From Chroococcales cyanobacterium (GTDB taxonomy: Bacteria > Cyanobacteriota > Cyanobacteriia > Cyanobacteriales > Nostocaceae): a DNA stretch of 64,000 nucleotides. Both the position numbers and the translations under genes were made by a program. Below, one piece after another: positions 7,032-29,750 of the stretch. The stretch spans positions 149 through 64,148 of the forward strand of contig JBBSCU010000001.1 in the NCBI GenBank assembly GCA_038249935.1, read 5' to 3'. The stretch's first letter is position 1; each line of letters starts with the position of its first letter. The notes beneath the pieces are model-generated. The model had not been told where the DNA came from. It saw only the letters and a program-made list of their open reading frames with translations, and searched no databases.

Positions 7032-9236
7032 ATGACTGAATTTACCAAAACCCTCTGTCCCTACTGTGGTGTTGGTTGTGGACTAGAAGTTTCACCCCCA
7101 GCCCAACAAGGCAAAGCAACTAATCGAGATAGCCAAGGAAATCCAATTTGGCGAGTCCGGGGCGACAAAGCCCATCCATCTAGTCAAGGAATGCTTTGCG
7201 TCAAAGGCGCAACGATCGCGGAATCTTTAGATAAGAATAGATTACATTATCCAATGGTGCGAGACTCTTTGGATCAAGAGTTTCGGCGGGTTAGTTGGGA
7301 TGAAGCTTTTGATCTGATCACCAAGCGCATTCAAACTGTGCGTTTCACCCAAGGGGTAGAAGCCTTATGTATGTATGGTTCCGGTCAGTTTCAAACCGAG
7401 GATTATTATATAGCCCAGAAACTCATGAAAGGCTGTCTGGGTACTAATAATTTTGATGCCAACTCTCGCTTATGTATGTCTAGTGCTGTGTCTGGCTACA
7501 TTCAAAGCTTTGGCGCAGATGGTCCGCCATGTTGTTACGAAGACTTGGAGTTAACTGACTGTGCGTTTTTAATTGGCACCAATACGGCTGAATGTCACCC
7601 CATCGTTTTTAACCGACTGGAAAAATATCACAAAAAGAACCGCAAGGTGAAAATGATTGTGGTTGATCCGCGTCGCACACCAACCGCAGAAGCCGCAGAT
7701 TTGCATTTAGCGATTCGTCCCGGTACAGATATTGATTTGTTAAACGGCATCGCCCATTTGTTGATGCGCTGGAACTATATTGATACCATGTTCATGGACG
7801 ACTGCACCAGCAACTTTCCGGCTTATGCTGAAGTGATTCGCCACTATTCGCCAGAAGTGGTAGCTCGCCAATGTGGAATCACCATTGAAGATTTAGAAAC
7901 AGCAGCTCGCTATTGGGGTAAATCTGAGCGGGTATTGTCTTTGTGGTCAATGGGTGTGAATCAATCTTCAGAAGGGACGGCGAAGGTCAGAACTATCATT
8001 AATCTGCACCTGATGACTGGACAAATTGGCAAACCTGGGGCTGGCCCTTTCTCGCTCACGGGTCAGCCGAACGCGATGGGAGGACGGGAAGCTGGGGGTT
8101 TAGCGCATTTATTACCAGGTTATCGGGTGATCAAAAATCCTCAGCACCGCGCAGAAGTTGAGGAGTTTTGGGGACTCAAGCCGGGACAGATTTCGCCCAA
8201 TCCCGGTTTGACTGCTTGGGACATGATTACTGGGCTGGAAAATGGCGCTGTAGAGTTACTATGGATTGCAGCTACCAACCCAGCTGTAAGTATGCCAGAT
8301 TTGGAGCGGACTAAAAAGGCGTTATTGCGATCGCCTTTTACCATCTACCAAGATGCATATTATCCCACAGAAACCTCAGCCTACGCTCACGTTCTGCTAC
8401 CTGCTGCCCAGTGGGGTGAAAAAACTGGCGTGATGACAAATTCGGAACGGGTGGTAACTTTATGTCAAGCCTTCCGCCAACCGCCAAGAGAAGCTAAAGC
8501 AGATTGGGAAATTTTTGCCGAAGTCGGACGCAGATTAGGTTTTGAGAAAGAATTTGCTTTTAGTAACTCTGCTGAAGTTTATGCTGAGTTTGTCAAACTG
8601 ACTAAAACTCGCCCCTGCGATATGACAGGTATCAGTCATGAGCAATTACAAGCAGAAGGCGCGACTCAATGGCCTCATCCTGAAGAGAGTCCTAATTGTA
8701 CAGACGCGATTAATCGCGTCTCTCCCAAACGCCTCTACACCAATCTCCGCTTCCACACCCCTGACGGACGCGCCCGATTTGGAGCATATTACTCAAAGGG
8801 ATTGGCAGAACCACCAGACCCCGATTATCCTTTTGTGCTTACTAATGGGCGACTTTACGGACATTGGCACACCCAGACACGCACTGGGCGGATTGAAAAA
8901 ATTTGCAAAATGCATCCCGAACCGTTTATCGAAATTCATCCCCGTGATGCTGCTAAGTTAGGTATTGTAGATAATATGTGTGTAGAAGTGCGATCGCGTC
9001 GCGGTAAAGCGAAGTTTCCTGCTAAAGTGACAAAGGCGATCGCGCCCGGTACAGTTTTTGTCCCTATGCATTGGGGTTCGCTGTGGGCAGACAACGCCGA
9101 AGCTAACGCCCTAACTCATCCAGAATCCTGCCCCGATTCGCTGCAACCAGAATTAAAAGCCTGTGCAGTCCAGCTAACACCAATTTCTGTGGAAGTTACA
9201 ATTAAAGACTATCAACTTCAGTCCTCACAATGGTAG
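7032..9236 (+). CDS. narB: Ferredoxin-dependent nitrate reductase (Mo-bisPGD)
   Basis: [14 protein letters not shown] Fe-S motif, [23 protein letters not shown]-terminal molybdopterin dinucleotide-binding domain. Confidence 0.97.
8698..8723. repeat. SDR-type palindrome inserted in frame in narB
   Basis: GTACAGACGCGATTAATCGCGTCTCT encodes TDAINRVS. Confidence 0.9.
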
Positions 9237-9301
9237 ACTGCTAAGTGTAACTTTAAAGAACTTTTAAAACATCCTCTAAATAAGAGTCTGAAATAGTCTT
9301 T

Positions 9302-9333
9302 AATTACGAATCACGAATTACGAATTACGAATT
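9302..9333 (+). repeat. Heptamer STRR (AATTACG)n
   Basis: About 4.5 copies; a shorter copy lies near 44115-44132. Confidence 0.85.
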
Positions 9334-9389
9334 ATTTTAATCCTCTAGATTTATCTATGGGATTTTATTTTAGAATCGGGTGCAGCATT

Positions 9390-9848
9390 ATGAAAAAGCT
9401 ACTGAGGCTCATTATCGGAGCTACCAAAGATGAGAACTTCATGCACGTTGTTGAAAATATAGAGGTGCTAGTTTCTAAGGCTCTATCTATTTTTATGGTA
9501 ATTGTGATTTTGGTAGCGGTCGCAGATTTAGGAGTCTTTCTTGTTAAAGAGTTATTTACAACACCTCATGGTACGTTTAACACAACATTATTCAAGATTT
9601 TCGGTTTATTTTTGAATATTTTAATTGCTTTAGAAATTTTAGAAAATATTACAGGTTATCTGCGAAAACACGTTTTCCAAGTTGAATTAGTTATTGGCAC
9701 TTCTTTAATTGCTGTTGCCAGAAAAATTATTATTCTTGACTTAGAAAAAGTCTCAGGTATTGATATAATTGGTTTAGGAATTGCTATTTTCGCTCTATCA
9801 ATTAGTTATTTGATAATTCGTCTCAGTCATTATAGAGATAGACGTTAA
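9390..9848 (+). CDS. PsiE-family (phosphate-starvation-inducible) membrane protein
   Basis: Four hydrophobic segments, LIALEILENIT, IAVARKIIILD. Confidence 0.8.
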   Translation: MKKLLRLIIGATKDENFMHVVENIEVLVSKALSIFMVIVILVAVADLGVFLVKELFTTPHGTFNTTLFKIFGLFLNILIALEILENITGYLRKHVFQVELVIGTSLIAVARKIIILDLEKVSGIDIIGLGIAIFALSISYLIIRLSHYRDRR

Positions 9849-9889
9849 GTTAGAAATTCCCCAAATAAACGAATTTTCAATAATTCATC

Positions 9890-10342
9890 ATGACAGATTT
9901 CTTTCAATTTGAAGCAGATTTTGTTGATTCTCTACGTTGCATCCCTATGCAAGTACGTTGCAAATTAGATACCTGTGGCATCAAGCTAAAATTGTCTGAT
10001 TGGAATCAAATGACTACAGCAGAGCGTCAAGCTTTAGTCGAATTACCTTGCACTAAAGAAACAGAAATTCAGTCTTACGGCGAGCGTATTCAGCAATTAG
10101 TTGTACAACGCACAGGTATACCAGCGACAAAATTGCCCATCGAGCCTTATCCCGCATGGCTAGACTCTGCCACTCTACCAGCCAATCTCCAGGAAAAAGC
10201 TCAAGAAATAGGTGTAACCCTGACACAGCAAGATTGGACAGCTTTAACGCCCTTACAACGTTTTGCCTTGATTAAACTCAGCCACCCAGGACATGAAAAC
10301 GAAAACTTTAACAGAGCGATCGCAGAATTTAATCTGCTTTAA
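9890..10342 (+). CDS. narM: Nitrate reductase-associated maturation protein
   Basis: FQFEADFVDSLRCIPMQVRCKLDTCGIKLKL..LTPLQRFALIKL; downstream of narB. Confidence 0.88.
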   Translation: MTDFFQFEADFVDSLRCIPMQVRCKLDTCGIKLKLSDWNQMTTAERQALVELPCTKETEIQSYGERIQQLVVQRTGIPATKLPIEPYPAWLDSATLPANLQEKAQEIGVTLTQQDWTALTPLQRFALIKLSHPGHENENFNRAIAEFNLL

Positions 10343-20951: not shown

Positions 20952-21012
20952 CAGAAGTCAGAAGTCAGAAGTCAGAAGTCAGAAGTCAGAAGTCAGAAGT
21001 CAGAAGTCAGAA
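20952..21012 (+). repeat. Heptamer STRR (CAGAAGT)8
   Basis: 8 perfect copies plus a partial, directly after the stop codon. Confidence 0.95.
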
Positions 21013-21184
21013 TACTCCAGCCATGTTCGCGCAGCGTCCCGTACAAAAGAGATAGAGTATTAAGTCTTGAAAAATCTTTTAATTTTGTTTCGCCCACAAT
21101 TCAGCTTGGTTTTAAACCAATATTCATTATTCAGTCCTACAGAATCCAATTCTGAATTCTTGTTATAAAAATGGTATTAATATC

Positions 21185-21625
21185 CTAAATATAATACATA
21201 AGTTCCTTCTGTTCTCGGATTGCTCTTTTTTCACAAAGGTCTTGGAGTGTATATTTTTCCAAAACGGAGTTAGCAGCCTGACGTGCTTCCTGCCAGACTT
21301 CTTGAATTAGCTCACCTTCTACCGTGTTGGGAGTTGGCTCACAAGCAGAGTCAACAACATCTGACCCTTCCATACAGCTAAAAGCATCTAGTACTGTGAT
21401 CTTCTGAGGATCTCGTGCTAGAACGTAGCCACCTTTGGCTCCACGTATACTTTTAATCAAACCTCCGCGCCTTAATGTTGCCAGAAGTTGTTCCAAATAG
21501 CGGTTTGGTATGTCTTGTAATACCGCTATCTCTCGAATTTGCAGGGCTTCACCCTTAGGGTAGCAGGTTGCCAACTCTAACAGGGCTAGAAGTGCGTATT
21601 CTGATTTGTTAGAGATTATAGCCAC
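21185..21625 (-). CDS. Rrf2-family transcriptional regulator (CymR-like)
   Basis: SEYALLAL..IPNRYLEQLLATLRRGGLIKSIRGAKGGYVLAR; lacks the three-Cys IscR cluster motif. Confidence 0.92.
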   Translation of the reverse strand: MAIISNKSEYALLALLELATCYPKGEALQIREIAVLQDIPNRYLEQLLATLRRGGLIKSIRGAKGGYVLARDPQKITVLDAFSCMEGSDVVDSACEPTPNTVEGELIQEVWQEARQAANSVLEKYTLQDLCEKRAIREQKELMYYI

Positions 21626-21884
21626 AGACGTAATATTTCAAACTCACATCTAAACATCCGAAGCCGCTGAGTCTGCTTACTTAACTTACTGCTAAGAAAA
21701 ACTCGACAATCTACTTTTTGTTGATCGGCTAACCTTACTTTAAAGACTTTCAAGGATAGAAGCAATTACTTTTTTTGTTTTTTTAAATAAATTAAAGTGA
21801 TTAATCGGTGTACGGTCTTCTGGAGTTGAAACTAAGTTAAAGGCTGATTCTATCTAGTTTTTAACCAAATTTTGTCAGTGATTA

Positions 21885-24857
21885 TCATGGTTTGTTAGTT
21901 CTTGGCGTATTGCTTAATTTGGCTCTTAAATCTGCCCATTTGACCCCTGCTAGGCTGGGCAAGACAACATGAGCGGCTCCAACTCGTTCATTGGGGCCGA
22001 GTCCTACTGCCCACATCCCCGCAGCTAGAGCTGCGTCAATTCCGGCTGCGGCATCTTCTACAACCACAGATTGCTCTGGTTCGAGTCCTAGCTGCTTGGC
22101 TGCGTACAGAAATAGGTCGGGTGCTGGCTTTGGTAGCTGTACACTATAACCGTCAGCGATCGCATCTACTTTATCAGCAATACCCAATAGTTCGATCACT
22201 GTCTGGGCATTTTTGCTAGCTGAACCAATACCAATTTTAATCCCAGCTTGCCGCAATTCATCCAAGAGGGCGATCGCTCCTGGTAACAAATTCTTGGGTG
22301 TCATATTTTGGATCAAGTCAACGTAGTACCCGTTTTTACGCTCCATCATCTCCTGGATTTGTGCTTCCGAATACGGTCTATCGCCGATAATTAGCATCAG
22401 AGATTCACGACGAGATACACCCCGTAGCGCTTCGTTAGCTTGCCGATTAAAAGGTATCCCCTCTTCATCTGCTAGCTTTTTCCAAGCTAGATAGTGAACT
22501 TCTGCTGTATCTGTTAGCACACCATCTAGATCGAAGATGAATCCTTGGATGTTGGGCATTGGGTAGTGAGTACTTATACTGAGCGTTCGCGTAGCGTCTC
22601 GTAGAGAAGTATTGGTTATTCCTCCTGTCTCAACTCCCGGACGCAAATCGAAGTCGTGCCATTTTCCGCGCCAGTGTAGTTTAAACTTCAGACGCGTCCA
22701 GCCCGGTGGTAGGTGAGGATTGGCTACGGGGCCATTTTCGGTTATTTGGATGCCGCCGAAGCCGAAAATTACAGCTTGCCAAATGCCACCAGCACTAGCG
22801 CCGTGAATTCCATCGCTGGTGTTATTTCGGTTATCTTCAAGATCAACCATTAACGCCCGCATAAACAGTTCGTAAGCTTGAGTTGATTTGCCTAAATCTG
22901 AAGCTAAAATCGCATGAACTGCCGGGCCAAGGGACGAACCATAGGTAATATCGGTGCGGGGTGCGTAATAGTCCCAGTTTGCTTGCAATGCTTTTTCGTT
23001 GTAGGGAAAATCTGCCGATTCCCGCATTAAATATAGGAGCATTAATACATCTGGCTGCTTGAGTACTTGATATTTGTTAGTTTTCTCAATACCTAATATC
23101 GGTTGCATGGAGCGATCGCGTGGTTCATAGTCTGCTAAATTGATATCTTCCAATTGAAAAAATCCCTCGATCTGCTCAATTAGTTCTGTTGATGGGTCAT
23201 AGAGAAACAATATTTTGGCGATGATATCTTGCCAATGCGATCGCTCTTCTGGAGTGAGTTTTAGTTTATCTTCTAGTTCGGTAGCTCGTTCGGGGAATTT
23301 GTCAGCCAACCAATCGTAAACTGCGATCGCTTTCTCTAGATGCCATTGCGCCATGCGGTTTGTAAAGGCGTTGTTGTGGACGAATTCATGGTATTCATCC
23401 GCTCCGATGACTCCCCGAATTTCATACTTTTGGCTCTCAGGATTGAATTCGACCCGGCTACCCCAAAAGATGGCTGCATCTAAGATCACCTCTGCGCCAC
23501 GCTTTTGCATCCAGTCATCATCACCAGTAGCTTGCCAATAGTTCCAAATGGCGTAAGGGATATCTGCATTGATATGAATTTCGCGATCGCGGCACCAAAT
23601 TCGCACGTCTTCACCATAAAAATCACTGCCGATAGCCCAACGTGGTGTAACTTCATCTCCGGTAATCGCACTTTCCCAGGAAAACATTGCCCCTTTATAA
23701 CCATAATGGGCTGCTTTGCGTCTAGCTCCATTCAAAGTGTGCCAACGGTAGCTGAGTAAGTTACGAGCGATCGCTGGTTGGGTAAACAGAAACATCGGCT
23801 GCATAAAAATTTCTGTATCCCAAAAGATATGGCCGCGATAGCCAAACCCCGAAAGAGTTTTCGCCGGAATGCTCACCCTGTCATCATGCCGTGGAGCGGC
23901 AATCAGCAGTTGAAATAAATTGTAACGAACCGCAAAAGCCGCTGTGCTATCCCCTTCAATCAGGATGTCACTTTGTTGCCAAACCTCATCCCATGCCTGT
24001 TCATTGGCTTTTAGTAATGTTACGTAGTCTGGCAGGTGCGCGAGTTTTTCTTGAGCTGCTGGGACTGGTGTTTCAATCTCCCGCGAGGTAAAAACTGTCA
24101 AGAGTTTTTCTATTGTTACGGTCTGTTCCGCTTTAGCTAAGAAGGTCGTACTCAAAGTCGGATAACCAGGTGCGGTACTGACTTGCAAAGATGCTTCAAT
24201 GCCTAATATTGTCACCTTAGCTGCCATACCGAGTTCAATTCGGGAGTTGCGGGTGCGGCGTTGTAACCAGATTCCTTGGTCAGTCTTGCCCTGGTCTAAT
24301 CCTTCCCAGTGATTGAAACCTTGATTTTCTGGATAGCCGTTGATACTAGCTTGAATTTCGATTAACCCATCAAAATCTACTGGCGTTAAATAGCAGCGTA
24401 GCGCCAATACGTGCGGATCTGCAAGACTAGCAAAGCGTTCAAAGCTGATGTCTATGGTGTTCCCACTGGGAGAGCGCCAACGCAAAGAGCGGCTGAGAAG
24501 TCCTTGGCGCAAATCAAGCTGCCGATTGTAGCGCAATATCTCACCTTGATCGAGGCGGAAGCGATCGCCATTCACAATCACTACCAAGGGCAACCAGTCA
24601 GGGCAATTTACCAGTTCAGTGTACACCACCGGCACATCATCGTAGACACCGTGGATAAAAGTAGCTGGCATTGCATGAGGATATCCTTCTTCAAAACTGC
24701 CTCTTGTTCCCAGGTATCCATTACCAATAGTAAAAACGGTTTCCTTGGAGTGCAATTGTTCAGAGTCAAACTGGGTTTCGGTTAATATCCAGTCTGTGTA
24801 AACAAAATGGGGAGTGGGGAGTGGGGAGTGGGGAGTAGTGAGTGGCGCATTGGGCAT
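21885..24857 (-). CDS. GH65 alpha-glucoside phosphorylase fused to beta-phosphoglucomutase (HAD)
   Basis: GNGYLGTRG, YRGHIFWDTE, GADEYHE, KQPDV, GSSLGP; C-terminal FDLDGVLTDTAE, KPAPDLF, VEDAAAG; exact start uncertain because the first codons are STRR-derived. Confidence 0.92.
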   Translation of the reverse strand: MPNAPLTTPHSPLPTPHFVYTDWILTETQFDSEQLHSKETVFTIGNGYLGTRGSFEEGYPHAMPATFIHGVYDDVPVVYTELVNCPDWLPLVVIVNGDRFRLDQGEILRYNRQLDLRQGLLSRSLRWRSPSGNTIDISFERFASLADPHVLALRCYLTPVDFDGLIEIQASINGYPENQGFNHWEGLDQGKTDQGIWLQRRTRNSRIELGMAAKVTILGIEASLQVSTAPGYPTLSTTFLAKAEQTVTIEKLLTVFTSREIETPVPAAQEKLAHLPDYVTLLKANEQAWDEVWQQSDILIEGDSTAAFAVRYNLFQLLIAAPRHDDRVSIPAKTLSGFGYRGHIFWDTEIFMQPMFLFTQPAIARNLLSYRWHTLNGARRKAAHYGYKGAMFSWESAITGDEVTPRWAIGSDFYGEDVRIWCRDREIHINADIPYAIWNYWQATGDDDWMQKRGAEVILDAAIFWGSRVEFNPESQKYEIRGVIGADEYHEFVHNNAFTNRMAQWHLEKAIAVYDWLADKFPERATELEDKLKLTPEERSHWQDIIAKILFLYDPSTELIEQIEGFFQLEDINLADYEPRDRSMQPILGIEKTNKYQVLKQPDVLMLLYLMRESADFPYNEKALQANWDYYAPRTDITYGSSLGPAVHAILASDLGKSTQAYELFMRALMVDLEDNRNNTSDGIHGASAGGIWQAVIFGFGGIQITENGPVANPHLPPGWTRLKFKLHWRGKWHDFDLRPGVETGGITNTSLRDATRTLSISTHYPMPNIQGFIFDLDGVLTDTAEVHYLAWKKLADEEGIPFNRQANEALRGVSRRESLMLIIGDRPYSEAQIQEMMERKNGYYVDLIQNMTPKNLLPGAIALLDELRQAGIKIGIGSASKNAQTVIELLGIADKVDAIADGYSVQLPKPAPDLFLYAAKQLGLEPEQSVVVEDAAAGIDAALAAGMWAVGLGPNERVGAAHVVLPSLAGVKWADLRAKLSNTPRTNKP
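22583..22607. repeat. SDR-type element in the GH65/PGM interdomain linker
   Basis: GCGTTCGCGTAGCGTCTCGTAGAGA; a related intergenic copy lies at 21025-21043. Confidence 0.65.
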
Positions 24858-24876
24858 AGGGATTAGGGATTAGGGA
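24808..24876 (+). repeat. Heptamer STRRs (TGGGGAG)4 and (TAGGGAT)3
   Basis: Read directly; overlaps the GH65 start region. Confidence 0.9.
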
Positions 24877-25004
24877 CTTTGAGCTAGATGAACGGAGTTC
24901 TGAGGTGGATGAACGAGTCTTTGAGAGAGATGAACGGAGTTCTGAGGTGGATGAACGAGTCTTTGAGAGAGATAAACGGAGTTCTGAGGTGGATGAATGA
25001 GTCT
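24877..25004 (+). repeat. 42-bp (2x21) tandem array, about 3 copies
   Basis: GATGAACGGAGTTCTGAGGTG-GATGAACGAGTCTTTGAGAGA at 24887, 24929 and 24971 (partial). Confidence 0.93.
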
Positions 25005-25010
25005 CTAATT

Positions 25011-25139
25011 CAATACGCTTGGGTTATTTTAGTGTTCGGAGATCCCCCCAACCCCCTTAAAAAGGGGGGCTAATATGTCTTTGTACCCCCTTTTTAAGGG
25101 GGTCGCCGAAGGCGGGGGGATCTTAACCCAAGCGTAGTC
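25011..25139. mobile_element. MITE-like element, same family as 5076-5207
   Basis: CAATACGCTTGGGTTA ... TAACCCAAGCGTAG ends and the same palindromic core. Confidence 0.72.
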
Positions 25140-25167
25140 TCTAATTCTCCTTGTCCCCCTTGTCCCC

Positions 25168-27579
25168 TCACCCACCCATATGCTTTTCTAAAATCTTTTT
25201 CGCTCTGGGTTTATAAATGAGATGAAATAACGCTTCCATGTAGCGATCTCTGGCTTCGTTATTTTCGGGAGCAACAAAGTTCCAAAAACTAAACATTTTA
25301 GCAAGCAGTAGTAATTGATTGCTATGTAAATGCCAATTATATTTGTTATGAATTCGCTGACTCATCCATTCTGATACTTCGTGCCAGTATTCAGCATGAG
25401 CATCACATTTTTCCAGGAAGTCTAAAATTTTCTTTGCTGTTCCTTCCAAGTCTGTAGGATTAACATTAAACTCGTTTTCTTGGTTCTCGATAATTTCTAA
25501 AGAACCGCCAAATTGAGTAGTGAAAGTAGGCAAGCCAGAAATCATGGCTTCCAAAATACTCCGCCCGAAGGATTCAAAGTAGGCAAAATGAACATAAACT
25601 CCCTGAGAATCTGCAACTACTCGGTAAGCTTCGCCGAGGTCTTTGCTAGGGATACGCATCCCCAACCAGCGAATCTTGCCATAGAGATGATATTGATTAA
25701 TAATGTTGTGGAGTTTTTGAATTTCTTCCGTTTCTTCTGAGTTTATACCTTCATGTGGATGCAGCTTACTACTTAAAAGTATTAGGTTACAACGCTCTTG
25801 CAACGCCTGACTTTTACCGAAGCATTCTGCTAAACCAGTCAGGTTTTCGATGGAAGTAATGGTATCAACGGCAAAGATTGGTCGCTTTTTAGGATGATCT
25901 AGATTCCCAAATATTTGGGGATCTTCGTGGCTAAAGAGTAGGTCGTGAATTTGTGTGCAAAGGTTATAATCTCGGTCTTCTTTTTGGCTATAAGAAAAGA
26001 AAATATTTTCATTTACTCCCGGTGGCACTAAGTTGAATTTAGGACTAAACAAATCAATCCCATCAACCACATGATACAACTGCGGCATCGTAAAGCACTT
26101 ATACGACTCGTATTGACCCATGCTGTCGGGTGTGCCGACAATTTCTTGATAGGACGATGTAATAATGAATTCGGCTGCATTCATGCTAATCAAATCGGCA
26201 GTGAATTGTACCGAGAAGTGATATTTATCTTCTAAATCTTGCCAATATAAATTGCTAAATAGATATTTAGGTTTTTCCAAAGAATGGGCAATATTACACT
26301 GGGTAACTTTCATCCGACGAGATAGGAGAAAGGCGACTAAATTCCCGTCGCTGTAATTACCAATGAGAAGATCGGGTTTGCCGTGGAATTGAGCTAGTAA
26401 TTCTCTTTCTGCATCTAGTGCAAATTGTTCTAAATAAGGCCAAATGTCAAATTTAGAAATCCAATTGTTGGTGATTTCTGGATTAAATTCCCCAAAGGGA
26501 ACCCGCAATATCCAAGCATTTTCAGTATCTTGAACTTTTTCTAAACGCAGGTTGCAAAGTGTCCCTTCACAATTAGGGATTAGTCGAGTGAGAATAATTA
26601 CGTGGGGTTTAATGCCCAACAAATCAAGTCCAGCGAGTTTGATTTGTTCACGCAGTTCGTTTTCTAAGCTCCGAGCTTGTTCGAGGACGTAGATAACTTG
26701 ACCAAGTGTTTCATCTCTTCCTAAAACATCTTGTTGTCCTACCCAGCCGTGAACGGAAACGAGGACGACGCGAAAGACAGCAGGGACGCGAGCGACAAAT
26801 GCTTCTAAGATGCCCGGTTCTGGGGAGTAAATGAGTCGGTCGATGAGTTCTAGGGTTTCGGAGATTCGCGCCGCAGCGTTACCCCAACCAGGCTCAAAGC
26901 CGAGTTCTTGGAGGTCGGAGCGGAATTTTTCATAAGGTTCATCAGGCTCAAGCTCACTCAAAAATTTCAGCGCTTTCTTAATTTGTTTAGCTAACTGCAT
27001 ACCGGAGGGAATGCGATCGCTCAACAATAGACTAATACCATCGTATTGCAGCCCATGTAATGCTTTAAATAACATTTCTAACCAATATTCGGGGTCAGCC
27101 AAAAACTGATTGCACAGGTAATGGTTGAGGAAGGCTAAACCTTGACCGATATTTCTAGCGTCGTCGATTCTTATAGAACTCTCATAGAAGGGGTGGAGGT
27201 CGATTTCGAGGATGTGGTTTTGGTAGCGGTTGACTAAGCGATCTCTCACATCTAGCAGCGCTTCAGGTGTCATCTGCTCGAACCGCCCAAAGTCGGCTGT
27301 CAGTTGCCAAACTTCTTGATTAGCAATCCTGGGTCGAACCACGAACCAAGTACTTTCATCTTCAATAATTATTTCGTGGGTGTACTGTATGAGTTTCCCA
27401 ACATAAGAAGAGTGGTAAAAATAGGCTGGCTTTTGGAATTGATGACAGTAGTCGACAAAACCCTGCAATATCTCATTTCTCAGGAAGTAACGCTTATCTG
27501 AAGCACTCAACGCATAAATAAACTGACGCAGAGCAGTTTTTTCATCACCGTTGAAGACAGCTTGAACTAGTTCATGCAT
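25168..27579 (-). CDS. susB: Sucrose synthase, divergent SusB type (GT4)
   Basis: YFLRNEIL, LGQVIYVLEQAR, GNYSDGNLVA, HSLEK, FESFGRSILEAM; 803 aa. Confidence 0.9.
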   Translation of the reverse strand: MHELVQAVFNGDEKTALRQFIYALSASDKRYFLRNEILQGFVDYCHQFQKPAYFYHSSYVGKLIQYTHEIIIEDESTWFVVRPRIANQEVWQLTADFGRFEQMTPEALLDVRDRLVNRYQNHILEIDLHPFYESSIRIDDARNIGQGLAFLNHYLCNQFLADPEYWLEMLFKALHGLQYDGISLLLSDRIPSGMQLAKQIKKALKFLSELEPDEPYEKFRSDLQELGFEPGWGNAAARISETLELIDRLIYSPEPGILEAFVARVPAVFRVVLVSVHGWVGQQDVLGRDETLGQVIYVLEQARSLENELREQIKLAGLDLLGIKPHVIILTRLIPNCEGTLCNLRLEKVQDTENAWILRVPFGEFNPEITNNWISKFDIWPYLEQFALDAERELLAQFHGKPDLLIGNYSDGNLVAFLLSRRMKVTQCNIAHSLEKPKYLFSNLYWQDLEDKYHFSVQFTADLISMNAAEFIITSSYQEIVGTPDSMGQYESYKCFTMPQLYHVVDGIDLFSPKFNLVPPGVNENIFFSYSQKEDRDYNLCTQIHDLLFSHEDPQIFGNLDHPKKRPIFAVDTITSIENLTGLAECFGKSQALQERCNLILLSSKLHPHEGINSEETEEIQKLHNIINQYHLYGKIRWLGMRIPSKDLGEAYRVVADSQGVYVHFAYFESFGRSILEAMISGLPTFTTQFGGSLEIIENQENEFNVNPTDLEGTAKKILDFLEKCDAHAEYWHEVSEWMSQRIHNKYNWHLHSNQLLLLAKMFSFWNFVAPENNEARDRYMEALFHLIYKPRAKKILEKHMGG

Positions 27580-27764
27580 GATGACGAATTCCAGAAATTT
27601 AGCTAGGTCACGACCTCATTTTTGTCTCCGGCTCTGTGAGGTACATTCCCCCCACGATGCTAAATTACTATAAAAATCTTTGCGTCTAGCTCTGGTATGA
27701 AAAGCTGCTAGAACTTCAAATCTATGGGATGAGAAAGCAACGGCTTCAGTGTTAGTTGAAAGGC

Positions 27765-27935
27765 AGGGCTATTTCATTCTCATCTAGCCCGCCTCAGAAT
27801 GAATTCTGAGTCTAATAGCGAAAGTCGTCTAAAGACGACTGAAAAAAGGTTATAGTCTAGTCCGTTTTAACGGACTTTAGCTATTAGCCTGAAACTTTAG
27901 TTTTGGGCGGTTTATGCCTAAAATGAAATAGCCCT
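27765..27935. mobile_element. MITE-like element with a perfect 14-bp TIR and a multibranch palindromic core
   Basis: AGGGCTATTTCATT (27765-27778) / AATGAAATAGCCCT (27922-27935). Confidence 0.72.
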
Positions 27936-27946
27936 TAAAGACAGCC

Positions 27947-28168
27947 TCATTCTTCTTCCCAAGATTCGTGATTCAGCAGGTCGATAATTCTATCTCTGAG
28001 TAGAAATTCATTTTTTTCTAGCTCCAGTTCAAAATTAATCCAGTCACGATGAGGAATATATTTGCAGAGGGTGTAAATTGGCTGCTGACGGTTAATAAGC
28101 CCCTTTTTCACAAGTTGAAGTGCTTCTACCTTGATAACCTCTATGTCGTATTTAATCGTAGTATTCAT
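27947..28168 (-). CDS. DUF4327-family protein
   Basis: YDIEVIKVEALQLVKKG..RQQPIYTLCKYIP..LEKNEFLLRDRIIDLL..W. Confidence 0.8.
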   Translation of the reverse strand: MNTTIKYDIEVIKVEALQLVKKGLINRQQPIYTLCKYIPHRDWINFELELEKNEFLLRDRIIDLLNHESWEEE

Positions 28169-28517
28169 AAATCGTTCCTTTGTTCTCAATCACGGAATTG
28201 AGAACTAAAACAATAGTTGCTTTGACTCTACCTTAAAATTATCAAAAAAATTGGCGAAAATTGTGAAGAATCAAGACATTAATGCTTGCTAAAAGTTAGA
28301 TATGCCAGTAAGATACTTTTTAGGTTTCCAAATATACCTTCTTTAGAGAGATTTTTACAGAGTAAGAAGGGCGGGATAGCAAGCTGTAGACAAAAATAGA
28401 GCAACCATTCAAAGACACTATGCGTAGAGTCTTGTAGAAAAGCGGTACTAAATGCTCTCTGTGCTAGTTGCCAAAGGGTAGGCTAGGGTAAAGAACATTC
28501 TCTAAAGGACTTCTACC

Positions 28518-29750
28518 ATGCTCTTAAATCTTGATAAAGTTCGCCAATATTTTCCCGCTCTAGCTGGTGAATGGACTTTTTTTGATAATGCTGGCGGGTC
28601 ACAAACCCTGAAAAAAGTAGCAGATAGAATTAGCGAATTTCTCCTGACTTCTGATGTCCAGTTAGGAGCTTCTTATGCGGTTTCTCAACTTGCAGGAGAA
28701 CGATTAGCTTTAGCAACTAAGGGAATGGCTACTTTCATTAACGCCAATTCTTCTAAAGAAGTGGTCATGGGACCATCTACTACAATGATGTTGAAAGTTC
28801 TCTCAATCTGTCTGGCTCAAACTTTCATGCCTGGTGATGAAATTATTGTTACTAATTGTGATCATGAGTCCAATATTGGTGCTTGGGTTGCTCTTGAAAA
28901 ACAAGGGATGAAGATTAAAGTATGGCAAATTCGCCCAGACAGCTTGGAACTTGATTTAGCAGATTTAGAACCATTGATGAGTCAGCGTACAAAACTGGTA
29001 GCTTTGACTCACGCTTCTAATGTTTTGGGAACCATCAACCCGATCAAAGAAATCGCTGCATTTGTACACGATCGCAATGCGATGATTTGTGTAGATGGTG
29101 TAGCTTATGCACCACACAGATTAGTTGATGTCCAAGATTTAAATGTTGATTTCTATGCTTTGAGTTGTTATAAAGTCTATGGGCCACATCATGCTTTACT
29201 TTATGGCAAAGAAGAACATTTATTAAGATTGCCTGGTCTTAACCATTATTTTATTGCTCAAACAGATATACCTTATAAATTTCAGTTAGGGAATGCCAAT
29301 TTTGAATTAAGTTATGGAATGTTAGGTTTATGTGATTATTTAAGTGAGTTAGCACAGCTGCACTATGGCAATCAAACTGCACCTGATTTGAGAAATCAAA
29401 TGGTGCAAGCGTTTGATTTAATTAGCATACATGAAGAAAAGATTAGCGATCGCCTTCTAAATTACCTCAACAACAAGTCTAATGTGCGAGTAATTGGTCA
29501 ATCAAAGGCTGATCGGCAATTACGTGTGCCTACTATATCCTTTGTAGTCGATGGAATGAACAGCTCAACCATTCCGGCAAAAATTGACCAACATTACATT
29601 GGGATTCGTTATGGTGACTTTTATGCTAAACGGCTCATTGAATACCTGGGGTTAGCGTCGCAAGGTGGAATAGTCCGGGTGAGTATGGTACATTACAACA
29701 CTCTTAAAGAAGTTAACAGCTTGATTGAGGCTTTTGAGCAAGTATTTTAA
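28518..29750 (+). CDS. Class V PLP aminotransferase / cysteine desulfurase-like protein
   Basis: FFDNAGGSQT, DHESNIGAW, THASNVLG, VDGVAYAPH, PLP lysine in SCYKVYGPH. Confidence 0.9.
   Translation: MLLNLDKVRQYFPALAGEWTFFDNAGGSQTLKKVADRISEFLLTSDVQLGASYAVSQLAGERLALATKGMATFINANSSKEVVMGPSTTMMLKVLSICLAQTFMPGDEIIVTNCDHESNIGAWVALEKQGMKIKVWQIRPDSLELDLADLEPLMSQRTKLVALTHASNVLGTINPIKEIAAFVHDRNAMICVDGVAYAPHRLVDVQDLNVDFYALSCYKVYGPHHALLYGKEEHLLRLPGLNHYFIAQTDIPYKFQLGNANFELSYGMLGLCDYLSELAQLHYGNQTAPDLRNQMVQAFDLISIHEEKISDRLLNYLNNKSNVRVIGQSKADRQLRVPTISFVVDGMNSSTIPAKIDQHYIGIRYGDFYAKRLIEYLGLASQGGIVRVSMVHYNTLKEVNSLIEAFEQVF

Follow-up and report, generated by a model that had tools for sequence, protein, structure and literature searches.

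A sucrose synthase paired with a GH65 phosphorylase–mutase fusion in Nostoc: a candidate route for recycling alpha-1,2-glucosylsucroses

The gene pair and its encoded enzymes

We analysed a stretch of 64,000 nucleotides (hereafter the window) of contig JBBSCU010000001.1 from the Nostocaceae assembly GCA_038249935.1, deposited as Chroococcales cyanobacterium, and followed up two genes that the initial annotation had tied to glucosylsucroses, the Glc(alpha1-2)n-sucrose oligomers reported to be accumulated by Nostoc and Anabaena under salt, heat and drying stress. Exactly as described there, the two open reading frames (ORFs) lie co-oriented on the minus strand: a sucrose synthase gene (P0002, 803 amino acids, 27579..25168) is followed, after a gap of 310 bp, by a gene (P0001, 990 amino acids, 24857..21885) that encodes a GH65 phosphorylase fused to a beta-phosphoglucomutase. 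The locus comprises the following features:

25168..27579, minus strand: sucrose synthase of the SusB lineage (P0002; TIGR02470 and Pfam PF00862, PF24862, PF24861)
24858..25167, minus strand: repeat-laden, strain-specific spacer of 310 bp (repeat and hairpin analysis)
21885..24857, minus strand: whole fusion ORF, GH65 phosphorylase plus beta-phosphoglucomutase (P0001; ORF and domain matches)
22647..24782, minus strand: GH65 phosphorylase part, residues 26-737 (PF03636, PF03632, PF03633; alignment to 3WIQ)
22551..22646, minus strand: linker between the enzymes, residues 738-769 (matches no family)
21996..22550, minus strand: beta-phosphoglucomutase domain, residues 770-954 (TIGR01990)

P0002 scored 1153.7 bits against the sucrose-synthase equivalog model TIGR02470 (cut-off 810.4) and also matched the three sucrose-synthase Pfam domains listed above, with sucrose-phosphate synthase models remaining far under their cut-offs. 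In P0001, the GH65 part consists of an N-terminal (residues 26-259; PF03636, 240 bits), a catalytic (residues 311-694; PF03632, 376 bits) and a C-terminal domain (residues 708-737; PF03633, 28 bits), each over its cut-off. A linker of 32 residues without any family match, which in some Nostoc relatives is longer by ~45-57 residues and still part of one open frame, leads to the mutase domain, which scored 245.3 bits against the equivalog model TIGR01990 (cut-off 189.4) and 164-184 bits against solved beta-phosphoglucomutases. Three enzymes are identified at the locus in this way. Neither the enzyme nor the gene pair is new, and both carry annotations, the fusion being named 'beta-phosphoglucomutase' by NCBI and 'kojibiose phosphorylase' by JGI. 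New sucrose-phosphate phosphatases (preprint 10.64898/2026.09.11.751015) were considered and set aside as irrelevant to the mutase domain, as they are HAD-IIB proteins and the domain here is HAD-IA. The start of the fusion ORF is overlapped by heptamer repeats at 24808-24876 (TGGGGAG x5.4, TAGGGAT x2.9); the TGGGGAG repeat encodes the variable, proline-rich N-terminal 17 residues of P0001, and homologues align only from residue 17-18 on.

P0001 was aligned over residues 22-739 to Caldicellulosiruptor saccharolyticus kojibiose phosphorylase (CsKP, PDB 3WIQ), with residue roles read from Table 2 of a 2024 GH65 review (PMC11442529). The catalytic acid is kept (E488, corresponding to CsKP E483, in the motif GADEYHE), as are the phosphate site (K333, Y340, S641, S642 and H685, corresponding to CsKP K330, Y337, S631, S632 and H675) and the -1 subsite (F345, W346, D347, K600 and Q601, corresponding to CsKP F342, W343, D344, K596 and Q597). 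In the +1 subsite, W394, E395 and C422 of P0001 stand against CsKP W391, E392 and T417. The kojibiose hydrolase model NF053734 reached 291 bits on P0001 (cut-off 800), and the intact phosphate-binding and catalytic residues mark P0001 as a phosphorylase rather than a hydrolase. The mutase part, aligned to the Lactococcus lactis enzyme (1LVH) through the motifs FDLDGVLTDT, GVSR, SASKN, KPAPD and ED, keeps the equivalents of D8, D10, T16, H20, G46, V47, R49, S114, K145, E169 and D170, which we take to be the Asp nucleophile and Asp acid/base of the DxD motif together with the cap-domain and Mg-site residues of a HAD-IA beta-phosphoglucomutase. As judged from these alignments, all catalytic residues of the fusion are intact.

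With regard to specificity, the six positions defined by De Beul et al. (CsKP 64, 392, 394, 402, 416 and 585; PMC8537180) are occupied in P0001 by E81, E395, A397, P405, W421 and G589. The resulting pattern E-E-A-P-W-G fits the kojibiose phosphorylase motif EEAPxx (EC 2.4.1.230) of that study, which points to this activity for the GH65 domain. An alternative would be action on another alpha-glucoside, such as glucosylglycerol, glucosylglycerate, trehalose or nigerose, in keeping with the diverse specificities and common acceptor promiscuity of GH65 enzymes (PMC11442529) and with the glucosylglycerol phosphorylase 4KTP being the second-best solved relative of P0001 (376 bits; maltose phosphorylase 1H54, 321 bits). 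However, 3WIQ scores 146 bits over 4KTP, both W394 and E395 of the +1 subsite are present, and EEAPWG differs from the patterns of maltose, trehalose and trehalose-6-phosphate enzymes (PMC8537180), so that we consider a substrate of this kind very improbable.

Conservation of the pair and two GH65 clades

Related loci were collected with one genome per species (389 relatives in 400 candidate stretches), and the best 80 were retained, mostly from Nostoc, plus Leptolyngbyaceae, one Pseudanabaenaceae and Phormidesmis. In 69/80 of these loci, and thereby in 69/69 of the informative ones, the gene directly upstream of the fusion is a co-oriented sucrose synthase; the remaining 11/80 carry no more than 255 bp upstream of the match. 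The upstream gene is full length in 66 of the 69 loci; in L056 and L074 it is cut by the contig end, and in L089 the match is limited to residues 485-802. In an even sample of 401 genomes across the phylum, whose members are related to each other, 70 genomes matched P0001 and 89 matched P0002. At 41 of the 80 GH65 matches of this survey, sucrose synthase stood immediately upstream on the same strand (gaps 17-521 nt), and at 0/80 was it found within 3 kb in any other arrangement; three more cases are broken by contig ends within ~250 nt of the relevant gene end. The mutase is encoded in the same open frame or abuts at 57/80 matches, which makes the fusion the rule among relatives. Adjacency of the two genes is far beyond chance, and the gene pair is ancient.

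The sucrose synthases themselves carry the same signal. In a FastTree tree of 44 rows picked from the survey tables, 23 GH65-linked and 21 unlinked sucrose synthases part on one branch with 100% support, the label 'linked' requires a single change, and P0002 falls inside the linked lineage. As the genome holds two sucrose synthases, of which P0002 is the GH65-linked one, the name susB given in the initial annotation is justified. The tree indicates that the linked synthase is a distinct lineage (SusB), which travels together with the phosphorylase across several cyanobacterial families.

In Nostoc/Anabaena sp. PCC 7120, the pair corresponds to all1059 (susB) and all1058 (PMC3610870; PMC13156569), the same genes in the same order, given as 'susB (all1058-all1059)' (PMC13156569); we derived orthology from synteny and from the occurrence of the pair in 41/45 sampled genomes of the family. 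The window comes from another Nostoc, which has the 310-bp repeat-filled spacer and a single GH65; PCC 7120 carries All4989 in addition. Both All1058 (BAB73015.1) and All4989 are listed as characterised kojibiose phosphorylases (PMC11442529; PMC3899277), the sole source of this listing being two Japanese meeting abstracts from 2010 (PMC11442529, footnote b). The terms 'fusion', 'fused' and 'cyanobacteri' are absent from the accessible text of that review, and the searched literature states no physiological role for all1058.

A few relatives depart from the common arrangement. At L163 (G098, same genus, 85% identity), the GH65 gene is an 824-amino-acid frame without mutase domain; it has no adjoining sucrose synthase and no ORF of at least 200 amino acids in the 3.6 kb upstream, and may represent a decaying locus. 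In two genomes of the same family with sizes of 3.8-4.1 Mb, G071 (locus L164) and G370, the fusion is reduced to a 680-amino-acid remnant without catalytic core. Directly upstream of the fusion in L157 (G308) and L158 (G208) lies a class-I fructose-bisphosphate aldolase gene; these fusions belong to a subclade in which the sucrose synthase partner has been lost.

A quick maximum-likelihood tree of 52 GH65 domains resolved two cyanobacterial clades. Clade 1 comprises 30 rows including the window, 24 of them fused and linked to sucrose synthase. Clade 2 comprises 17 rows, 11 without mutase and 6 fused, with 0 next to sucrose synthase; likewise, sucrose synthase was found within 3 kb of 0/13 mutase-less GH65 matches of 55-63% identity in the survey. 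A link of the second GH65 of PCC 7120 (all4989) to susA (all4985) was considered and not borne out in other genomes. At 90% conservation, five alignment columns only separate the clades, and two of these immediately succeed the +1 subsite residue, with W-C-R-D-R in clade 1 (P0001 residues 421-425, about 23583-23597) and W-C/T-G-D-I in clade 2 and CsKP. The motif RIWCRD[R/Q/H]E is present in 80/80 related loci. The R-D-R of the sucrose-synthase-linked clade hints at a modified acceptor site. The two most basal linked members have G-D-R.

Taken as a whole, the GH65 part shares with the C. saccharolyticus (3WIQ) and Thermoanaerobacter brockii kojibiose phosphorylases the fold, domain order, catalytic Glu, phosphate site and -1 subsite, as well as the +1 W-E and the EEAPxx motif; it differs from them in Cys instead of Thr, R-D-R instead of G-D-I, the fused C-terminal mutase and sucrose synthase as gene partner.

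Clade 2 GH65 genes, which are All4989-like, have a different neighbour in three genomes of other families, where they lie directly downstream of a debranching-enzyme-like hydrolase gene (L125 in G011, L134 in G302, L130 in G316). The G011 hydrolase (L125:5377-7692, 771 amino acids) contains GDE_N_bis and GDE_C/MGH1-like domains, and among solved proteins it is closest to 7VMA, a putative archaeal-type debranching enzyme (311 bits).

This arrangement bears on a second alternative, in which the natural substrate would be free kojibiose or a kojioligosaccharide instead of a sucrose-capped oligomer. Such sugars could be released by the debranching-enzyme-like hydrolase or by an invertase, removing fructose or cutting the chain, and SusB would adjoin the fusion merely since both serve stress-sugar turnover. 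The position of clade 2 GH65 genes, downstream of the hydrolase in G011, G302 and G316 and never by sucrose synthase, is in line with this proposal, as is the fit of the active-site motif to classical kojibiose phosphorylases. On the other hand, the SusB lineage is linked in 23/23 sampled cases, and the linked clade has R-D-R instead of G-D-I after the +1 residue, which hints at a different acceptor site. Moreover, to our knowledge free kojibiose is no reported cyanobacterial metabolite. Although the orthologue is listed simply as kojibiose phosphorylase (PMC11442529), we regard free kojibiose as an unlikely natural substrate.

Synthesis and proposed breakdown of glucosylsucroses

The enzyme that makes glucosylsucroses was identified in 2022 as TeGSS (tll1591), together with alr1000 of PCC 7120, and uses uridine diphosphate glucose (UDP-glucose) and sucrose (PMC9909042). 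With UDP-glucose, the products of both are oligomers equivalent to the ones found in extracts of stressed Nostoc; the terms 'phosphorylase' and 'catabol' are absent from the accessible text of that paper. The Anabaena glucosylsucroses, reviewed in PMC4390843, accumulate only transiently.

We located TeGSS in a Thermosynechococcus-like genome, next to sucrose-phosphate synthase, and confirmed it against PDB 7FG9/7FGA (816 bits). Its orthologue in the genome of the window lies on another contig (G000:C92:14217-15302; 512 bits, 63% identity), 3.6 kb from the SusA-type sucrose synthase (C92; L123:3234-5654 and 9215-10303). Between these two genes are a peptidoglycan-binding protein, a BlaR/BlaI-like pair and a ComB-type phosphatase, all unrelated. 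A second, truncated synthase copy is present at G000:C55:9414-9977 (201-amino-acid frame, residues 1-189 only). Pfam Glycos_transf_1 was discarded as a route to the synthase in this genome, with 56 matches being too many to choose from, and the TeGSS dimer motif R-D-x-x-W-Q had no match in it.

Across the 401 genomes, the synthase co-occurs with GH65. Using thresholds of our own setting (GH65 at ≥56% identity, best synthase E value ≤1e-125), the synthase was found in 52/55 genomes with GH65 versus 21/346 without, and outside the window's own family in 12/13 genomes with GH65. Two of the three GH65 genomes without synthase, G071 and G370, carry a GH65 remnant lacking residues ~399-650; neither of them yielded a sucrose synthase gene, a synthase-family gene or a debranching-like one, which looks like co-loss of the whole gene set. 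In two further genomes the genes are clustered: G364 has synthase, sucrose synthase and GH65-mutase in this order, all co-oriented, and G011 has a synthase-like gene followed by the 771-amino-acid hydrolase and GH65-mutase. The synthase and the fusion share the proposed metabolite and are co-regulated in PCC 7120, yet TeGSS/alr1000 is a retaining GT-B glycosyltransferase acting on UDP-glucose and hence a synthetic enzyme.

We propose, at about even odds in our own estimate, that the gene pair forms a phosphorolytic breakdown branch for glucosylsucroses that runs without adenosine triphosphate (ATP). The GH65 domain would phosphorolyse the terminal alpha-1,2-linked glucose to beta-glucose 1-phosphate, and the fused mutase would turn this otherwise dead-end product into glucose 6-phosphate, thereby drawing the reversible phosphorolysis forward. 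Once the chain is down to sucrose, SusB and a nucleoside diphosphate (NDP) would yield NDP-glucose and fructose, such that every hexose would be recovered activated or phosphorylated without ATP. Synthesis would take place elsewhere, by the UDP-glucose-dependent glucosylsucrose synthase encoded on the other contig. Owing to its reversibility, the phosphorylase may in addition equalise chain lengths. Both the choice of glucosylsucrose over free kojibiose as substrate and the net direction are our inference.

Circumstantial evidence of four independent kinds backs a link to alpha-1,2-glucosylsucrose: the co-occurrence, the clustering in two genomes, co-regulation in PCC 7120 and the acceptors that the T. 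brockii kojibiose phosphorylase can use. This enzyme transfers glucose from beta-glucose 1-phosphate to O-2 of the glucose residue of sucrose and builds Glc(alpha1-2)n chains on xylosylfructoside (PMC1994063), and it tolerates acceptors with various anomeric substituents (PMC4336185), which makes the reaction with glucosylsucrose chemically ordinary for this family.

In PCC 7120, both all1058 and susB belong to the OrrA salt and dehydration regulon (PMC9804601). Wild-type fold changes at 3 h, with those of the orrA mutant in brackets, were 19.3 (2.0) under salt and 29.3 (1.8) under dehydration for alr1000, 14.3 (1.2) and 18.4 (1.5) for all1058, and 69.3 (2.6) and 53.1 (4.1) for susB. In the wild type at 3 h, spsA rose 6.5-fold under salt, and all4989 changed 1.3-fold under salt and 0.49-fold under dehydration (PMC9804601, Table S1).

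The initial annotation had left open whether the locus builds or recycles these solutes. Recycling is more likely: it is the better reading of a synthase being present in 52/55 GH65 genomes, and building is made unlikely by the known UDP-glucose-dependent glucosylsucrose synthase with an orthologue in this genome. Net synthesis by the pair would mean that the mutase makes beta-glucose 1-phosphate from glucose 6-phosphate and that GH65 adds the glucose to sucrose supplied by SusB or SpsA, building glucosylsucrose without spending UDP-glucose. GH65 phosphorylases are reversible, and a kojibiose phosphorylase glucosylates sucrose in vitro (PMC1994063). Consistent with synthesis, 3 h of salt or dehydration suffice to induce all1058 and susB along with spsA and alr1000, and the more than 80-fold rise in sucrose upon dehydration would push the reverse reaction (PMC9804601). 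Against it, GH65 is present in only 52/73 of the synthase-bearing genomes sampled. The phosphoglucomutase equilibrium also favours glucose 6-phosphate, which together with millimolar phosphate in the cytosol would keep the yield low, and known sets of phosphorylase and beta-phosphoglucomutase elsewhere are catabolic. As TeGSS and alr1000 with UDP-glucose already make equivalent oligomers (PMC9909042), we judge net synthesis to be improbable, somewhat more so than free kojibiose as the substrate.

Sets of this kind are known from other bacteria. In Escherichia coli, YcjT, a listed kojibiose phosphorylase (PMC11442529), and YcjU, which we take to be a beta-phosphoglucomutase of the same cluster, are unfused products of individual genes within a sugar-uptake cluster that lacks sucrose synthase. 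In the maltose and trehalose phosphorylase operons of lactic acid bacteria, an inverting GH65 enzyme yields beta-glucose 1-phosphate, which a dedicated mutase feeds into glycolysis (PMC4336185); there, the enzymes are unfused and act on imported sugars of other linkage, in contrast to the endogenous compatible solute proposed here.

Spacer, transcription and a possible glucosylsucrose cycle

The spacer between the two genes contains a 42-nt unit x3.0 at 24877-25004 in addition to heptamer repeats. An 18-nt inverted repeat (25051-25068 / 25086-25103), 65-117 nt past the sucrose synthase stop, is predicted to fold into a hairpin of -57.8 kcal/mol (z -5.27). Given spacers of 17-521 nt in other genomes, the repeats of this strain are strain-specific insertions of Nostoc repeat elements. 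A consensus scan of 21000-28600 gave no excess over shuffled sequence for promoter-like (14 versus 13.1 expected) or terminator-like sites (8 versus 7.2). In the RNA libraries X15, X16 and X17, contigs of 90-99% likeness, in which DNA carry-over is possible, cover the sucrose synthase (~25097-27733) and the fusion (~21908-24814) nearly end to end; library X18 holds pieces of 151-155 nt only. These contigs neither show nor exclude an operon.

None of the neighbouring genes has a tie to sugar metabolism; they encode NdhM, a TOBE protein, an Rrf2 regulator, a class-V aminotransferase and MoeA. The Rrf2-family regulator gene (21185-21625, minus strand), directly downstream of the fusion, is the only recurring neighbour, in 46/80 loci, all Nostoc and none in distant lineages; no link of it to the sugar genes is evident at the locus.

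Several observations weigh against the breakdown route. At the protein level, P0001 departs from the W-E-T motif of the +1 subsite by Cys at the third position. The same Cys is found in 46/48 aligned cyanobacterial sequences, the remainder having one Val and one Ser, and Thr is retained in two distant relatives from non-photosynthetic lineages. As T417 mutants of CsKP keep more than 14% activity and two Nostoc enzymes are listed as kojibiose phosphorylases (PMC11442529), the Cys lowers strict motif membership, not likely activity. At the locus, the spacer hairpin could dampen read-through in this strain, and no contig in libraries X15-X17 bridges the spacer, which differs between strains. No synthase gene was found in the window or within 6 kb of the pair in the 80 related loci, nor any debranching-like gene in their 6-kb flanks.

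With regard to distribution, the survey genomes are related, and co-occurrence counts therefore overstate independent support. In addition, 21 sampled genomes, including three Thermosynechococcus-like ones, have the synthase family without GH65, and the phosphorylase can thus not be the sole way to handle the product. Expression data are ambiguous as well: at 3 h of stress, all1058 and susB are up along with the synthesis genes, which is compatible with either synthesis or turnover, and the authors of that study, citing Ehira 2014, place susB in sucrose synthesis (PMC9804601). A degradative role is nonetheless compatible with co-induction, since trehalase treH rises 21.5-fold upon dehydration alongside the trehalose synthesis genes (PMC9804601) and the oligomers are transient. 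Finally, the searched literature contains no assay of a cyanobacterial GH65 on glucosylsucrose.

The debranching-enzyme-like hydrolase weighs in the same direction. Hydrolase and synthase family each occur in 104/401 genomes, 95 of them common among the matches listed, and their family-by-family distributions are almost the same. In 35 genomes, including non-photosynthetic lineages, a synthase-family gene is found no more than 5 kb from the hydrolase gene, with both sharing a strand in 34, and the genome of the window has a copy of its own (G000:C268:3173-5476). The hydrolase is tied to the synthase far more tightly than GH65 is and is a rival candidate for the degrading enzyme, as a putative glucosylsucrose hydrolase or transglycosylase; it is also a possible upstream partner of the phosphorylase. 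The family may correspond to Lti2 (all0875) of PCC 7120. All0875, annotated as 'probable alpha-glucanotransferase', responds to salt with 72-fold and to dehydration with 127-fold induction under OrrA (PMC9804601).

Combining these elements, we tentatively suggest, with a likelihood slightly short of even, an OrrA-controlled glucosylsucrose cycle of four parts: chain extension by an alr1000-type synthase, trimming by the phosphorylase-mutase fusion without ATP, cleavage of sucrose by SusB, and a clade 2 phosphorylase acting with the hydrolase. As part of the same joint claim, SusB would have stood beside the phosphorylase since before the split of Nostocales and Leptolyngbya-like lineages, and the clade 2 phosphorylase would do the same job with the debranching-like hydrolase, possibly Lti2, as the phylum-wide partner of the synthase.

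The open literature searched here contained no paper on glucosylsucrose breakdown or linking it to a phosphorylase, the 2010 abstracts and Ehira 2014 lying outside its coverage. A link between the gene pair and glucosylsucrose is likewise absent from it, and in this respect novelty is confined to the pathway assignment. Together with this assignment, the proposed co-inheritance of SusB and phosphorylase, the clade-specific acceptor-loop motif and the pairing of synthase and hydrolase are new here and lend themselves to testing. SusB is routinely taken as a marker of 'osmolyte synthesis' in Nostoc desiccation studies, with its gene partner ignored (PMC11962455, PMC13131328).

Glucosylsucroses, also called sucroglucans, are cyanobacterial stress solutes whose removal route is absent from the searched literature, and alpha-1,2-glucosides of sucrose attract interest as additives for cosmetics and food. 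Should the pair prove to be the recycling route, this would explain the role of the second sucrose synthase, give a function to a fusion annotated only as 'beta-phosphoglucomutase', and provide a one-protein catalyst connecting glucose 6-phosphate with such alpha-1,2-glucosides. If the four-part cycle holds true, it would define the first physiological roles for SusB, All1058 and Lti2 and the first phosphorylase for a sucrose-capped alpha-1,2-glucan.

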